A stretch of 37,703 bases of DNA. Origin: Candidatus Hecatellales archaeon B24. Lineage in GTDB: Archaea; Thermoproteota; Bathyarchaeia; Hecatellales; Hecatellaceae. The stretch covers positions 1 through 37,703 of the forward strand of contig LUCC01000004.1 in NCBI GenBank assembly GCA_001593855.1, written 5' to 3'. The translations under genes were made by a program, and so were the position numbers. Below the pieces are notes generated by a model that was given only the letters and a program-made list of their open reading frames with translations, ran no database searches and was not told where the DNA came from. The stretch's first letter is position 1, and the number at the start of each line of letters is the position of its first letter. Positions 21,661 through 28,120 of this stretch are shown here, one piece after another.

Positions 21661-23580
21661 TTGATAGATGGACTGCTTATAGGTTTAACCGTTGGGTTCC
21701 CTGTGGTTACAGGCCTCTTGGCCCGGGGTCTTCCAGGCGTTTGGTCAAGAAGACTGCTGGTAGTTTTAACCACCATCGTTCTAATCGTCTCCTCGCTTCT
21801 ACTCCTGTGGAGAGGCCCCTACACCTATACTCTCCCAGAGTTTTGGGACGAGGTTATAGTGGTTTTAGACTTCATCCTGCTCTTTTACTTCCTCTATCTG
21901 GGCTTCAGAATCAGGCATCCGCTTGTAGTTGTTTTAACTTTGCTCCAGCTGGTTCCCCTCGCCTACTTTGAGGCTTCTCTCCCGGTTATCCACGTGGAGC
22001 CTACGCTTGCCATAGACTTCCTAGCCATCATCATGTGCCTAATCATATGCGTTATAGGCTCTCTCATCTGCGTTTACGCTTTAAGCTACATGGACGAGCA
22101 TGAGGAGCACCTGCACCTGGCCAAAACCAGGCAGCCCAGATTCTTCCTTTACATGCTGCTTTTCCTCGGAGCCATGAACGGGCTGGTTTTCGCCAACAAC
22201 CTTTACTGGCTCTACTTCTTCTGGGAGGTTACCACGCTGTGCTGCTTCCAGCTTATCAGGCATGATGAAACACCGCAGGCGGAAAAAAATGCTGCCCTGG
22301 CCCTCTGGATGGGCCTCATAGGCGGAGTAGCCTTCGTCGCCAGCCTTTTCATCGGCTACTACCAAGTTGGAAATCTGGGTCTCAACAGTCTGATGTCTGC
22401 TCAGCCTGCCGCTATTATCCTTTTAGCCTTCGCCTGTCTGGCGTTAGCTGCCTTCACCAAGTCTGCTCAAGTACCCTTCCACAGCTGGCTTCTAGGTGCG
22501 ATGGTGGCGCCTACTCCCGTTTCCGCCCTTCTCCACTCCAGCACCATGGTTAAGGCAGGCGTATACTTGGTGCTTAGGATTGCTCCAGCCCTTCAGGGTA
22601 CAGCTTTAACTTCGGCTGTAGCCTTTGTGGGAGGGTTGAGCTTTCTGGTTACCGCGGTTCTCGCCATAAGTCAGAGGGAGTCTAAGCGTATCCTCGCCTA
22701 TTCAACCATTGGAAACCTCGGCCTCATCATTCTCTGCGCCGGAGTTAACACTCCTCTGTCCATGGTTGCCGCCCTGCTTTTACTGGTTTTCCACGCCATG
22801 TCTAAGGGGCTTCTCTTCCTCGGTGCCGGAATAGTTGAGAACAGGGTTTACAGCCGGAATATTGAGGATTGGGAGGGGCTTATCGCAAGGTTTCCCCTGA
22901 TTTCAGCCATCATGCTGGTGGGGATGTTCACCATGTTCCTTCCCCCCTCTGGGATGCTTCTGGCTAAATGGGTAACGCTGGAGGCTGTAGCCTCCTCTCC
23001 AGCCCAGTGGGCTATAACGCTCGTAACAATCCTCGCGGTTGGAAGCGCGGCTACAACCCTCTTCTGGTCGAAGTGGATGGCTCACCTGCTCTTCCACCCG
23101 TCCACAGCTGAAAGGGCTAAACGGGAGAAGCTTCAGCTTCCATACTTGGCTTCAACCATCACCATAACTGCGCTGGACATAGCTGTAAGCGTTATAGCCG
23201 CGGTTCTGGTTGCAGCCTTAGTGATTCCAACGGTTAAGCCCTGGTACGCGGTTAAACTGGCTTTGCCGCTTCTAAACCTCTCAACGGGAATCGGAGCATT
23301 CCCCATATGGCCTCTCTTCCTAGTTATGGCGGTAGCCTTAGCCCTTGCGGTGATGGTTTTCAGGGCTAAAGGTGGAAAGCTGGTTTCACCCTACATGTGC
23401 GGGGAAAACGTTGAAGGCGCTCCAGCCTCCTTCCGCTCCACAGCCGACCTAGAATTCAACTTTGACGCTTCAGGAATGTTCTTCGATAGAGCACTGGGAG
23501 AACCTAAAACCAACAGGTATGTAACCGCGGTTGGAATCCTCCTAACGGTTCTGGTTTTCGCCTTGGCTTTGGTGGTATAA
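21661..23580 (+). CDS. group 4 [NiFe]-hydrogenase membrane subunit, NuoL/MrpD/EchA-like antiporter module
   Basis: 639-aa polytopic protein with the proton-antiporter core (AFTKSAQVPFHSWLLGAMVAPTPVSALLHSSTMVKAGVYL). Confidence 0.85.
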   Translation: MIDGLLIGLTVGFPVVTGLLARGLPGVWSRRLLVVLTTIVLIVSSLLLLWRGPYTYTLPEFWDEVIVVLDFILLFYFLYLGFRIRHPLVVVLTLLQLVPLAYFEASLPVIHVEPTLAIDFLAIIMCLIICVIGSLICVYALSYMDEHEEHLHLAKTRQPRFFLYMLLFLGAMNGLVFANNLYWLYFFWEVTTLCCFQLIRHDETPQAEKNAALALWMGLIGGVAFVASLFIGYYQVGNLGLNSLMSAQPAAIILLAFACLALAAFTKSAQVPFHSWLLGAMVAPTPVSALLHSSTMVKAGVYLVLRIAPALQGTALTSAVAFVGGLSFLVTAVLAISQRESKRILAYSTIGNLGLIILCAGVNTPLSMVAALLLLVFHAMSKGLLFLGAGIVENRVYSRNIEDWEGLIARFPLISAIMLVGMFTMFLPPSGMLLAKWVTLEAVASSPAQWAITLVTILAVGSAATTLFWSKWMAHLLFHPSTAERAKREKLQLPYLASTITITALDIAVSVIAAVLVAALVIPTVKPWYAVKLALPLLNLSTGIGAFPIWPLFLVMAVALALAVMVFRAKGGKLVSPYMCGENVEGAPASFRSTADLEFNFDASGMFFDRALGEPKTNRYVTAVGILLTVLVFALALVV

Positions 23581-23581
23581 A

Positions 23582-24463
23582 ATGGATGGATGGCTTCTCA
23601 GCCTCACGGTTGCCGTCGGACTTGTGGTAGCAGCTCCCTTTATAGGAGGAATCCTAAGCGGGATAGACCGGAAGCTCACGGCGAGAATGCAGAACAGGGT
23701 TGGACCCCCAATTATTCAGCCTTTCTACGACCTGCTGAAGCTTTGGGGGAAGGAAAGCTTTGTGGCAAGCCGCTTCCAAGCTCTGCTGGCTTTCTCCTTC
23801 ATGGTTTTCTCGGTGGTAGCCTTCACCCTGCTTGTCCTAGCCCAAGACCTTCTGCTCATAGTGTTCGTCATTTCGCTGGCCGACGTATGCCTTGTTCTCG
23901 GAAGCTACTGTGGAAGGTCTCCCTACAGCTATCTTGGGGGGAGAAGGGAACTGCTTCAAATGCTCGCCTACGAGCCTATTCTGATACTTGCCGTCGTAAA
24001 CATTTACGCGGCCACAGGAAGCTTCATGGTTGAAGGCGTTTTCAAGCTTGGCTTCCCGCTGGTAATACTGCTGCCAGGAGTTTTCCTAGCCCTCCTCATA
24101 GCCCTGCCCATCGAAGCCAGAAAGTCCCCCTTCGACATCTCAGCCAGCCACCACGCCCACCAGGAAATAGTCCGAGGAGTCTTCACCGAGTTTTCAGGCT
24201 TCTCCCTAGCCCTCATAGAGTTCGGCCACTGGTTCAAGCTAATCTTCTACCTCGCCCTCCTCGCGCTTTTCTGGGTGCCACTCCTATGGCTGGGAGCCGT
24301 TCTCGCCTTCATCTTCTACTTCATAATCATGATTGTAGACAATATCTTCCCTAGGCTCACTTGGACTTTTATGTTGAAGGCTGTCTGGCTGGCAGGCTTC
24401 ACCCTTGCAGTTTCAAACCTTATCGTTTTAGCACTGCTGGGAGTTGGTTTAGCATGGGCGTAA
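23582..24463 (+). CDS. group 4 hydrogenase membrane subunit, NuoH/EchB/HycD-like
   Basis: GIDRKLTARMQNRVGPP..QPFYDLLKL signature of the NuoH/HycD family, 8-TM profile. Confidence 0.9.
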   Translation: MDGWLLSLTVAVGLVVAAPFIGGILSGIDRKLTARMQNRVGPPIIQPFYDLLKLWGKESFVASRFQALLAFSFMVFSVVAFTLLVLAQDLLLIVFVISLADVCLVLGSYCGRSPYSYLGGRRELLQMLAYEPILILAVVNIYAATGSFMVEGVFKLGFPLVILLPGVFLALLIALPIEARKSPFDISASHHAHQEIVRGVFTEFSGFSLALIEFGHWFKLIFYLALLALFWVPLLWLGAVLAFIFYFIIMIVDNIFPRLTWTFMLKAVWLAGFTLAVSNLIVLALLGVGLAWA

Positions 24464-24887
24464 TGGCGAAGTCTAGAGCTAAGTCTCCTTGGATACTGCA
24501 TGTTAACTGTGGAAGGGCTGCGACATAGAAATCCTAGCGTGTTTAACCCCAAGGTTCGATGTGGAGAGGTTTGGAATGCTTCACATGGGAAATCCTAAGC
24601 ACGCTGACATTCTGCTTATAACAGGGCCTGCCAACCGGAGGAATGCTAGGGTGCTTAAAACCCTCTACGAGCAGACTCCTGAGCCGAAGGTTGTAGTGGC
24701 TGTGGGAACCTGCGCCTGCACCGGAGGCATATTCCACAACTGCCCCAACGTGCTGGGAGGAGTTGACAAGGTTATCCCCATAGACGTCTACGTTCCAGGC
24801 TGCGCTGCAAGGCCTGAATCCATCATAGACGGCGTGGTTTTGGCTCTGCAGAAGCTTGCGGAAAAGAGGGTGGAGGAGGAAGCCTGA
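24463..24887 (+). CDS. hydrogenase small subunit, NuoB/EchC-like, interrupted by an apparent 1-nt frameshift near 24514-24518
   Basis: ATG 24463 (overlapping the upstream TAA) encodes MAKSRAKSPWILHVNCGR, then hits TAG at 24526. The shifted frame continues GCDIEILACLTPRFDVERFGM..PKHADILLITGP..GTCACTGG..VYVPGCAARPE (track ORF 24561-24887). Confidence 0.8.
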
Positions 24888-26665
24888 TGGCGTCGCAGGT
24901 TGTCGAAGTACCCGTAAGCAAGGCTGAGCTTTTCACGAAAATCTACGAGCTTGCCGCAGCCAAGGCCAGGTTTATAGCTATAACATGCAAGGACCTAGAA
25001 GACCGCTTCGAAGTCATCTACCACTTCGAGGAAGACCTGAAAGTTGTGAACGTTAAAGTTGAAATCGGGAAGGACGAGGTTTTACCCAGCATAACCAGCA
25101 TATACCCCTGTGCTTTCTTGGCCGAAAACGAGATAAAAGACATGTTCAAGGTGAACTTTGCAGGCTTAAGCCCTGACCTCCAGGGTAGGCTTCTGAAAAC
25201 GGCTGACGCCACTCAGACCACCCTTCTGAAGCCTGCGGTAGGAGTTCAGCCTCCAAAGTTCCGGCTGGAGGCAAGATGCGGCCAGCAGTGTCCAGCCGGA
25301 ATAGACATACCCCGCTATGTTAGGCTTATCGCGGAAGGAAAATACGTGGAATCCTTCCAGACTATTCTTGAGAAGGCTCCTTTCCCCGCCATTCTTGGAA
25401 GAGTATGCTTCGCCCCTTGCGAGGAAGGATGCAGGCAGGCTAAAAACGAGCAGCCCATACCTATAAGGCTGCTTAAACGCTTCGTAGCAGACCAGGTTGG
25501 CGTGAAGAAGCTTAAGGTGGAAAGGCTTAAGTCCACCGGTAAGAAGGTTGCCATCGTCGGGGCGGGGCCGGCAGGCCTTACAGCCGCCTACTACCTCGGC
25601 CTCCTAGGCCATGAGGTAACGGTTTTCGACGAGTTTCCCAGGCCTGGAGGAATGATGCTTTCAGGCATACCTGAGTACAGGCTTCCCAAGAAGCTTATGG
25701 AGGCTGAGATTAAGGCGAGAATGGAAGAGGCTGAAGTTGAGCTTAAACTTGGAAGGAAAATTGAAAGCCTAGACGAGCTTCTGGGCGGAGGCTACGACGC
25801 CGTTTTCATAGCTGTGGGAGCCCATGAAGGCGTGAAGCTTGGTGTTGAAGGAGAAGACCATCCGAAGCTCTTAGACTGCCTCCAGCTTTTAAGGGAGGTT
25901 AATCTTCAAGGTGAAAGGCCTAAGATAGGCCGAAAAGTGGTGGTTATAGGCGGGGGAAACAGCGCCATAGACGCTGCAAGGGTTTCACGGAGGCTTGGAG
26001 CTGAAGACGTAACCATCTTTTACCGGCGGACTAGGAAGGAGATGCCTGCCACCCCAAGAGAGGTGGAAGAAGCTGAAGCTGAAGGCGTTAAACTGGAGTT
26101 CCTTGTAGCTCCAACCAAGGTTCTGCCAGGCGAATCCCCGGCGAAAATGGAGTTCATAAGGATGAAGCTTGGAGCACCCGATGCCTCTGGAAGGCCTAGG
26201 CCTGAACCCGTTCCCGGAAGCGAGTTCACCGTGGAGGCTGACGTTTTCATTAGGGCCATAGGCCAGGTGGTCACCGTTCCCAAGGGATTCAACCTTAAAC
26301 TGGACAGGCGGGGCCGAATAGAAGTTAACCCTGAAACCTTGGAGACAAGCCGCAGCGGGGTTTTCGCTGGGGGAGACGCTGTGACAGGCCCCGCCTCGGT
26401 GGCTGAAGCTATAGGAGCAGGATGGAAGGCTGCCAGCGCCATAGACAGATACCTAGGCGGCCAAGGCCTTAAAGAGCGTGAACTGAAGGAAGAGTTAACG
26501 TTGAGGCCCAGCGTTGAAGACGTTTTAGAGCTTGAGAGCATTCCGGTCGCCATGCTTCCTGTGGAGCAGAGGCTTAAAGGCTTCGACGAGGTGGAGTTAG
26601 GCTACCGGGAGAAGGAGGCTGTTCAGGAGGCTAAACGCTGCTGGAGGTGTGACTGGTATGAGTAA
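24887..26665 (+). CDS. fusion protein: NuoC/EchD-like hydrogenase subunit (about aa 1-105) plus a GltD/NfnB/SudA-type NAD(P)H:FAD iron-sulfur oxidoreductase module
   Basis: N-terminus: FEVIYHF...PSITSIYPCAFLAENEIKDMFKVNFAG (30-kDa subunit pattern). Then CGQQCPAGIDIPRYV...GRVCFAPCEEGC (Fer4_20-like), VAIVGAGPAGLTAAYYL (FAD), VVVIGGGNSAIDAARV...YRR (NADPH), GVFAGGD. The C-terminal tail is FDEVELGY..EAVQEAKRCWRC. Confidence 0.85.
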   Translation: MASQVVEVPVSKAELFTKIYELAAAKARFIAITCKDLEDRFEVIYHFEEDLKVVNVKVEIGKDEVLPSITSIYPCAFLAENEIKDMFKVNFAGLSPDLQGRLLKTADATQTTLLKPAVGVQPPKFRLEARCGQQCPAGIDIPRYVRLIAEGKYVESFQTILEKAPFPAILGRVCFAPCEEGCRQAKNEQPIPIRLLKRFVADQVGVKKLKVERLKSTGKKVAIVGAGPAGLTAAYYLGLLGHEVTVFDEFPRPGGMMLSGIPEYRLPKKLMEAEIKARMEEAEVELKLGRKIESLDELLGGGYDAVFIAVGAHEGVKLGVEGEDHPKLLDCLQLLREVNLQGERPKIGRKVVVIGGGNSAIDAARVSRRLGAEDVTIFYRRTRKEMPATPREVEEAEAEGVKLEFLVAPTKVLPGESPAKMEFIRMKLGAPDASGRPRPEPVPGSEFTVEADVFIRAIGQVVTVPKGFNLKLDRRGRIEVNPETLETSRSGVFAGGDAVTGPASVAEAIGAGWKAASAIDRYLGGQGLKERELKEELTLRPSVEDVLELESIPVAMLPVEQRLKGFDEVELGYREKEAVQEAKRCWRCDWYE

Positions 26666-27785
26666 GGGTGCAGCCACCCGGAAATACACGGTTTTCCCCT
26701 TCGGACCTCAGCATCCTGTTCTGCCCGAGCCCATTCAGCTCAGGTTCACCGTGGACGAGGAAAAAATAGTTGACGTAGGCGTGAACGTGGGCTATATTCA
26801 CCGGGGGGTGGAAAGAGCCTGCGAGCTTAACGACTACCAGCGGAACGTATACCTCTGCGAAAGGGTCTGCGGAATATGCAATGTAATGCATGCCTTATGC
26901 TACTGTATGGCTTTGGAGAAGCTTGTGGACGTGGAGGTTCCTGAAAGAGCCCAGTATTTGAGGGTTATATGGGCAGAGCTTAACAGGCTTGAAAGCCACC
27001 TCCTATGGCTGGGCCTCCTAGCCGACGCCATGGGCTTCGAAAGCCTCTTCATGCAGTTCTGGAGGGACAGGGAAATCGTTATGGACCTCCAGGAGCGTAC
27101 AGGTGGAAACAGGGTTATACCTTCAACCTGCGTGGTTGGAGGGGTTAGAAGGGACATTCTTAAGCCCTTGGCTGAACGTTTCAGGGAAGGCATGATTGAG
27201 CTTAGAAGGCGGGTGGACAAGCTTGCCCCAGTCATTCTTAAGGACCCAGCCTTCAAGAGGAGAACCGTTGGGAAAGGCTTTCTGTCCTATGACGACGCCC
27301 TGATGCTTGGAGCCGTAGGCCCCACAGGCAGGGGAAGCGGCCTAGTGAAAGACATCAGGCTTGAAGGCTACCAGGCCTACAAGCACCTCAAATTTGAGCC
27401 CGTAGTGGAAAAGGACGGCGACGTTTACGCCAGAACCCTTGTAAGGTTCTACGAGGTATACCAGGCCATAGACTTGATTCTCGAAGCCTTAAAAAGCATG
27501 CCTGAAGGGGAAATCAGGGTTAAACCTGAAAAGTGGCCTGAAGGAGAGGCTGTGGCAAGGGTTGAGCAGCCTAGAGGAGAACTTTTCTACTATGTTAAAG
27601 GGAACGGAACTAACAGGCTTGAAAGAGTTAAAATTCGAACTCCAACCCTCGCCAACATTCCGCCTTTGCTTGCCATGCTTCCAGGATACGAGGTAGCAGA
27701 CATACCTGTAATCGTTCTCTCCATAGACCCCTGCATAGCCTGCACTGAAAGGATAACCCATGTTAAGAAGGGAGGGGGAAACTGA
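26658..27785 (+). CDS. [NiFe]-hydrogenase large subunit, group 4 (EchE/NuoD-like)
   Basis: Both Ni-Fe ligand pairs are present: RVCGICNVMH (26862-26891) and DPCIACTER (27727-27753). GGAGGTG lies 8 nt upstream of ATG 26658. The track start GTG 26649 is also possible. Confidence 0.9.
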   Translation: MSKGAATRKYTVFPFGPQHPVLPEPIQLRFTVDEEKIVDVGVNVGYIHRGVERACELNDYQRNVYLCERVCGICNVMHALCYCMALEKLVDVEVPERAQYLRVIWAELNRLESHLLWLGLLADAMGFESLFMQFWRDREIVMDLQERTGGNRVIPSTCVVGGVRRDILKPLAERFREGMIELRRRVDKLAPVILKDPAFKRRTVGKGFLSYDDALMLGAVGPTGRGSGLVKDIRLEGYQAYKHLKFEPVVEKDGDVYARTLVRFYEVYQAIDLILEALKSMPEGEIRVKPEKWPEGEAVARVEQPRGELFYYVKGNGTNRLERVKIRTPTLANIPPLLAMLPGYEVADIPVIVLSIDPCIACTERITHVKKGGGN

Positions 27786-28120
27786 TGGTTCGAATGCTGC
27801 CCAACATCCTGAGAAACCTCTTCTCCAAGCCTGCAACGGTTAAACATCCCTTCGTGAAGAGGGAACCCTTCCCCGGCCACCGTGGAACGATAACCTTCGA
27901 CATGAAGAAATGCGACCTATGCCAGGACTGTGAGAGACTCTGCCCTCCAGTAGCCATAAAAGTTGACCCTGAAGCCAGAACCATAACCTACGACCCCTTC
28001 AAATGCATATACTGCTACCTCTGCGTTACCAACTGCCTTCAAAGAGCCATAAGAGGGCGTCCAGCCTACACCCCGCCAGCCTACCAGAAAGAGATAGTAT
28101 ACTATAAGCCTGAAGAATAA
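27785..28120 (+). CDS. 2x[4Fe-4S] ferredoxin-like hydrogenase subunit (EchF/NuoI-like)
   Basis: CDLCQDCERLCP and CIYCYLCVTNC cluster motifs. The ATG overlaps the upstream TGA. Confidence 0.85.
   Translation: MVRMLPNILRNLFSKPATVKHPFVKREPFPGHRGTITFDMKKCDLCQDCERLCPPVAIKVDPEARTITYDPFKCIYCYLCVTNCLQRAIRGRPAYTPPAYQKEIVYYKPEE

Follow-up and report, generated by a model that had tools for sequence, protein, structure and literature searches.

The stretch of DNA analysed here, referred to as the window (37,703 nucleotides of contig LUCC01000004.1 from the Candidatus Hecatellales archaeon B24), carries on its forward strand a complete open reading frame (ORF; 24887..26665; 592 residues plus stop) that joins a NuoC-like domain, through a linker, to a circularly permuted GltD/NfnL-like NADPH flavoprotein module. 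Six genes run in the same direction here, with this one in fourth place; in order, they encode NuoL-, NuoH- and NuoB-like proteins, the fusion protein, a [NiFe]-hydrogenase large subunit and a NuoI-like protein. The NuoC/MbhK-like domain occupies residues 27-105 (24965..25201; Pfam Complex1_30kDa, E 2.4e-13) and is modelled by AlphaFold 2 (AF2) with a predicted local distance difference test (pLDDT) score of about 90 over residues 11-80. The linker that follows (residues 103-125; 25193..25261) is predicted to be disordered (pLDDT below 50). The main part of the Fe-S domain spans residues 129-204 (25271..25498) and holds C131, C135-P136, C174, C178, C182 and K197. FAD- and NADPH-binding Rossmann domains come next (residues 219-512; 25541..26422; Pyr_redox_2, E 4.8e-31; NAD_binding_8, E 7.9e-10), in whose sequence the motifs GAGPAG and GGGNSA can be read. 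The second of these conforms to the GxGxxA pattern that has been proposed in the literature to bind NADP(H). Residues 563-592 at the chain end (26573..26662) correspond to the displaced first segment of the Fe-S domain and read R..F.EVELG...EA.R-C585-W-R-C588-DWYE-COOH.

The protein has ten cysteines, at positions 34, 75, 131, 135, 174, 178, 182, 331, 585 and 588, and all seven that belong to the GltD-like Fe-S signature (131, 135, 174, 178, 182 and the tail pair 585 and 588) are present and conserved, together with K197. Neither histidine nor cysteine stands just before C131 (...PPKFRLEAR-C131). The AF2 model of the fusion has a pLDDT of 87.6 overall and places the tail confidently, with values above 90 over residues 551-580.

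The preliminary description of this gene, made from the sequence alone, had predicted that the Fe-S domain profile Fer4_20 (PF14691; 113 positions) would match the protein in two pieces, and such a split was found. Residues 129-204 of the native protein correspond to profile positions 30-108, and in the C-terminal tail searched by itself (the last 62 residues) it is residues 563-589 that match positions 2-28 (E 9.4e-5, 22.6 bits). The Fer4_20 score of the protein in the Pfam scan is 84.2, above the cut-off of 25.8. In an artificial construct in which the tail is joined straight to C131, the two pieces merge into one unbroken match over positions 2-108 that reaches 101.4 bits, about 33 bits more than the 68.8 of the native N-terminal part. 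Joining the C-terminus to C131 also recreates C585-x2-C588-x4-C131-x3-C135-P, which is the canonical motif with its canonical spacing, since the chain ends exactly four residues after C588, as the C2-x4-C3 interval demands. When the rejoined domain was searched against the sequences of the Protein Data Bank (PDB), its best match was the canonical NfnB of T. maritima (4ylf_B residues 12-123, E 6.8e-21), without a gap at the junction (RCwrCdwyeCgqqCP against RCLQCPTHPCVSGCP). In the same search 9bov_A, 9n5u_A and 8oh5_C were each matched in two separate pieces.

The contiguous C-x2-C-x4-C-x3-C-P motif is thus not found wholly upstream of the flavin domains; it is divided into C-x3-C-P (131-136) and C-x2-C (585-588). 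The first helix and the CxxC of the canonical N-terminal Fe-S domain sit after the flavin domains, and the interruption lies exactly within the loop of four residues that separates Cys2 from Cys3. The split profile match and the gap-free rejoined alignment therefore establish that the permutation with respect to canonical GltD, NfnB and DPD is real. The cysteines of the first [4Fe-4S] motif do come from two distant parts of the chain, C585/C588 in the tail and C131/C135 after the NuoC-like domain, as had been proposed. What did not hold is the view that the domain is permuted around the NuoC-like domain: relative to GltD, NfnB/NfnL and DPD, the first helix and CxxC have moved to the C-terminus around the FAD/NADPH domains, and the NuoC-like domain is simply fused upstream of the permuted module through the linker.

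Among homologues this organization is widely conserved. In the protein search over 100 clusters from NCBI, JGI, ENA and Logan assemblies shared this architecture, most of them with 588-617 residues, at 50-98% identity; their labels include Hecatellales (Bathyarchaeia), Korarchaeum, Methanomethylicota, Odinarchaeia and Dehalococcoidia. In 118 of 120 fusion homologues the chain stops exactly four residues beyond R-C-W-[RK]-C, the other two being listed as partial, and the permutation was conserved in every homologue examined. C131, C135-P136, C174, C178, C182 and K197 are invariant in all 120, and a 32-sequence alignment adds R198, R584, C585, W586, C588 and D589 to these invariant positions. 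Alignment to a hidden Markov model shows the permuted order of all seven cysteines for 114/120 fusion homologues and for 135/149 more diverse representatives of the module, about 141-143 of the latter retaining the tail pair. A contiguous canonical motif occurs in only one of these 269 sequences.

Such conservation bears on two ways in which the split motif could be devoid of meaning, both of which were rejected on this ground. An assembly artefact joining two gltD-like copies has a negligible probability. Nothing was found in support of a false junction, although the neighbouring gene in the window has a 7-nucleotide deletion, probably a local error or lesion. The same architecture, of 588-601 residues, in so many clusters from independent assemblies excludes the mis-assembly that had been named in advance as grounds for abandoning the idea. 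The same operon is also found on contigs of up to 615 kb, and in relatives as well as in the window the fusion gene runs at its end into the beginning of the gene that follows. It is likewise very improbable, if less so, that the tail is a non-functional vestige, left behind for instance by a downstream NuoG-like or ferredoxin domain that was truncated, or by a second copy of gltD, and that it binds no cluster and leaves the distal cluster absent or completed otherwise. Bfu-type relatives do extend their CxxC into CxxCxCxxxxxC leading into a NuoG-like domain, from which a short tail could arise by truncation. A vestige, however, would hardly keep R584, C585, W586, C588 and D589 invariant, have its end point fixed at +4 in 118 of 120 homologues, retain its cysteine pair across the diverse representatives and be modelled with high pLDDT. 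Moreover, without the tail C131 and C182 would be only two of four ligands, yet both are invariant.

The preliminary description had further held the permutation to be undescribed, a claim that could not be sustained. Residues ~130-589 are collinear with 9bov_A (103-567) and 8oh5_C (71-566) at ~40-43% identity, while the alignment to 9n5u_A falls into two pieces. In a Foldseek search the AF2 model found 8oh5_C, 9bov_A and 9n5u_A as its best matches, with 470-558 aligned columns as compared with ~431 for canonical NfnL. The first is StnC of Sporomusa ovata (PDB 8oh5/8oh9), and the other two are NfnA of Bfu-type NfnABC complexes, from Caldicellulosiruptor (9bov/9bp5) and Thermococcus sibiricus (9n5u/9n5v), all solved by electron cryo-microscopy. 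According to the Stn paper, the GltD region of StnC comprises residues 102-565 and two [4Fe-4S] clusters; when StnC is aligned to the fusion protein, residue 565 falls on the junction motif's second cysteine. According to a paper of 2020, StnC seemed to conserve only five of the eight Fe-S ligands present in SudA, SfrB and GltD, and the literature has already remarked on split cysteine motifs as resulting from the integration of GltD. No paper using the phrase "circular permutation" for GltD/NfnB-type proteins was found in a literature search that combined it with glutamate synthase, NfnB and 4Fe-4S, the single hit with the phrase dealing with another topic.

Curated families tell the same story. 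The NCBIfam models PRK12771, PRK12814 and YgfK (TIGR03315) align through the tail to residues 588-589, and therefore contain the same permuted module, whereas alignments to the gltA, gltD, AegA and YgfT models stop at residues 518-526. The scores of the former lie under the curated cut-offs (466.9 bits against 516 for PRK12771, where residues 122-588 match model positions 41-511 of 566; 450.5 against 916 for PRK12814; 306.7 against 835 for YgfK), and these families have other N- and C-terminal partners, without the NuoC-like domain. An exhaustive search with residues 126-592 returned 24,305 relatives. The best 150 representatives at 50% identity all match through the tail, in proteins of 458-1504 residues and with the module starting anywhere from residue 1 to 644. 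The permuted order is accordingly shared throughout a large family, some members of which have solved structures, and is no novelty of this protein. In the sampled representatives, whose sequences were read by eye only, the cassette is accompanied by HycB-like polyferredoxin, SdhB, PyrD, old yellow enzyme, 2-oxoacid oxidoreductase and NuoG/Fdh look-alikes, and some proteins are little more than the cassette itself (e.g., P0226, 494 residues).

Compared with StnC and Bfu-type NfnA, the window protein shares the permuted order C-x3-C-P, G-R-V-C-x3-C-x3-C, Lys, flavin domains and R-C-x2-C, the lysine at the fourth-ligand position of the FAD-proximal cluster and the GxGxxA NADP(H)-type motif. Their module, by contrast, lies within a NuoG/Fdh-like subunit, between HxxxC and CxCxxxxxC junction cysteines, and cooperates with a bifurcating core of the NuoE/F type. 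The module of the window protein instead follows a NuoC-like domain, lacks the junction cysteines, ends at CxxC plus four residues and is encoded in a membrane hydrogenase operon. Neither a NuoG/Fdh-like host, nor the junction motifs, nor a NuoE/F-like core in the operon, which characterize the Bfu/Stn-type large subunit, is thus found for the window protein. With canonical GltD, NfnB (NfnL, SudA) and DPD (4ylf_B, 5jca_L, 6s6s_G, 1h7x) it has in common the fold, the FAD, NADPH and two [4Fe-4S] clusters, and, once the Fe-S domain is rejoined, an end-to-end alignment with identical cysteine spacing. The canonical proteins differ in carrying all Fe-S ligands in one N-terminal extension and in their non-cysteine ligand: NfnL and GltS use Glu and DPD uses Gln, where the window protein would use Lys. 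Alignments of the native window protein to them stop near residue 525 and leave the tail out.

Structural data on these relatives also guide the assignment of cluster ligands. Csac NfnA binds its first cluster after FAD (A7) through Cys108, Cys147, Cys151 and Lys170, which a gap-free alignment places at C135, C174, C178 and K197 of the window protein. From this we infer that the FAD-proximal cluster would be bound by these four residues, and the FAD-distal (exit) [4Fe-4S] cluster by C131, C182, C585 and C588. The tail CxxC would pair with C131 and C182 because C135 goes to the proximal cluster and C585/C588 are the only other conserved cysteines of the module. The superposition of the AF2 model on StnC over the whole module, together with the confidently modelled tail, lends this pairing indirect support. 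The earlier expectation that the tail CxxC packs against C131/C135 would then be right for C131 and wrong for C135, whose place in the distal cluster would be taken by C182. The preliminary description had also suggested that cluster assembly would depend on correct folding of the entire fusion; a part for the NuoC-like domain in this is disfavoured because the linker is predicted to be disordered. Lysine stands at position 197 in every fusion homologue; among the diverse representatives (P0121-P0269), 135 of 149 have Lys there, eight have Glu and five have His.

The five other genes of the operon, all on the forward strand, encode a NuoL/MbhH-like antiporter-type membrane subunit (21661..23580), a NuoH/MbhM-like membrane subunit (23582..24463), a NuoB/MbhJ-like hydrogenase small subunit (24454..24887), a NuoD-like [NiFe]-hydrogenase large subunit (26649..27785) and a NuoI/MbhN-like 2x[4Fe-4S] subunit (27785..28120). 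The large subunit carries RVCGIC and DPCIAC, matches PF00374 and PF00346 and has MbhL (6cfw_L, E 4.9e-73) and HycE (7z0s_E) as its closest solved relatives. Hence the NiFe motifs of the large subunit and, by Pfam, the NuoH-, NuoL-, NuoI- and NuoC-like subunits expected of a group 4 operon are all present. The six core types NuoL, NuoH, NuoB, NuoC, NuoD and NuoI are those of the group 4 membrane-bound [NiFe]-hydrogenases (P. furiosus MBH, 6cfw; E. coli FHL, 7z0s; Ech). Known members of that group differ in taking their electrons from ferredoxin, formate or CO, whereas in the window the NuoC-like subunit carries a covalently attached NADPH flavoprotein module. The six-gene order recurs around homologues with 98%, 76%, 64% and 54% identity on independent archaeal and bacterial contigs, as well as around a form of the fusion that begins with a receiver domain. 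The neighbours of the fusion gene in the window encode hydrogenase subunits only, and the operon contains no partner resembling NuoE/F or NfnA/NfnS.

The large-subunit gene starts inside the last codons of the fusion gene, at GTG 26649 or ATG 26658, so that the codons of the tail CxxC (26639-26650) overlap or abut its start. The same 8-nucleotide gene overlap is seen at the relatives' loci L001 and L007.

The small-subunit gene is broken in the window. Seven nucleotides, CTGCAAC in the 98%-identical relative L005, are missing between 24515 and 24516, so that the CGSCNGC cluster motif is partly lost and the reading frame is shifted. The 5' piece reaches a stop at 24526-24528, and what is listed as ORF 24561-24887 represents the 3' part only. 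An intact NuoB-like small subunit with four proximal-cluster cysteines is therefore not encoded here, while in relatives L001, L003, L005, L006 and L007 the gene is intact (140-146 residues). The deletion may be an assembly error, a strain variant or the mark of a pseudogene.

Taken together, we consider it quite likely that this protein serves as the NuoC-like subunit of a membrane [NiFe]-hydrogenase of the Mbh/Ech type with six subunits, flexibly linked to a circularly permuted GltD/NfnL-like NADPH:acceptor oxidoreductase module of the StnC/Bfu-type NfnA kind. The conserved operon context suggests an NADPH-linked membrane hydrogenase, and the Lys-type proximal cluster and the lack of NuoE/F-like partners point to a presumably non-bifurcating input module like that of StnC; it is on these features and the GxGxxA motif that we propose an NADP(H)-linked membrane enzyme. 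The proposed electron path would run from NADPH through FAD, the proximal and distal clusters, the NuoI-like 2x[4Fe-4S] subunit and the small-subunit cluster to the [NiFe] site, or equally well in the reverse direction, and turnover could be coupled to ion movement through the NuoH/NuoL-like subunits. Several points weigh against this proposal. The reduction of protons to H2 by NADPH is uphill under standard conditions, and both direction and coupling are guesses. Furthermore, the complex may be non-functional in this organism owing to the small-subunit deletion, unless the assembly is wrong at that point, and the distal-cluster ligands of the solved homologues are assigned by elimination, the ligand list of cluster C6/A6 (Cys562/565, 563/566) not having been found in the searched text of the Stn and NfnABC papers.

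A different role for the complex is conceivable but unlikely: the permuted module would be real and the enzyme no simple NADPH-linked hydrogenase, engaging instead in bifurcation or confurcation with ferredoxin or reducing a different acceptor, for instance polysulfide. In Mbh/Ech-type enzymes ferredoxin usually enters at the NuoI-like subunit. GltD-like modules act in bifurcating Nfn complexes, the relative NsoC has been described as part of an NADPH-dependent sulfur oxidoreductase, and polysulfide reduction was once proposed for SudA/Nso-type enzymes. However, the putatively Lys-ligated proximal cluster matches the StnC type, which lost bifurcation, the operon lacks any partner of the NuoE/F or NfnA/NfnS type, and the NiFe motifs are intact, all of which speaks for the NADPH-linked hydrogenase.

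With regard to the module itself, a break in the loop between two ligands of one cluster would pin both of its ends on that cluster. The N- and C-termini of the module should therefore be adjacent at the electron exit, an arrangement that would let it be inserted in or appended to different hosts with its exit cluster beside theirs, and that may account for its wide spread and variety of partners. Along these lines we put forward a broader idea, tentatively and with slightly more doubt than conviction: that the NuoC::GltD fusion marks a widespread, uncharacterised class of six-subunit Ech/Mbh-type [NiFe]-hydrogenases (labelled Bathyarchaeia, Korarchaeota, Methanomethylicota, Odinarchaeia and Dehalococcoidia), in which a built-in NADPH dehydrogenase module replaces the ferredoxin, formate or CO input, and that the permuted GltD cassette, with its ends pinned on the exit cluster, is a general device for insertion into many hosts. 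If true, this would represent an alternative, single-polypeptide way of attaching a pyridine-nucleotide module to a complex-I-like core. What remains little described so far is the NuoC fusion inside a group 4 hydrogenase operon: our literature search found no paper on a NuoC-GltD fusion or on an NADPH-linked group 4 hydrogenase, and one survey paper mentions in passing glutamate-synthase-type modules as inputs of group 4b enzymes.

Recognition of the permuted cassette has practical consequences as well. Domain models that treat Fer4_20 as one N-terminal block under-call the permuted class, the native protein showing positions 30-108 only, and such proteins come to be named "FAD-dependent oxidoreductase", "glutamate synthase beta-like" or "formate dehydrogenase beta". 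It also explains the three of eight Fe-S ligands that appeared to be missing from StnC in 2020, and it makes the ligands assignable by sequence alone. At the physiological level, the fusion suggests that some Bathyarchaeia and other anaerobes link their NADP(H) pool directly to a membrane-bound, possibly ion-translocating hydrogenase, which bears on the energy metabolism of the carriers and on the way in which complex-I-like enzymes acquired nucleotide-oxidising modules. None of these findings overturns current understanding.

Some relatives show further features. In a Dehalococcoidia-labelled branch the fusion carries an extra N-terminal response-regulator receiver domain (PF00072; L006 1732-3906, P0030; about 25 other clusters, 723-724 residues), its gene still lying between those for the small and large subunits; this hints at a possible control of a hydrogenase subunit by phosphorylation. 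At the 54%-identity locus (L003/L004 1243-3568, 11470-15779) the operon is flanked by molybdenum-cofactor genes (MoeA, MobB, MoaE and FdhD), a molybdate/tungstate-type ABC transporter and NifU-like genes, and nothing comparable lies beside the operon in the window. In a Methanomethylicota-labelled relative (L007 10018-11176), genes for HypA and a ParA/CbiA-type ATPase are located just downstream of the operon, an arrangement consistent with a functional [NiFe] enzyme in that relative.

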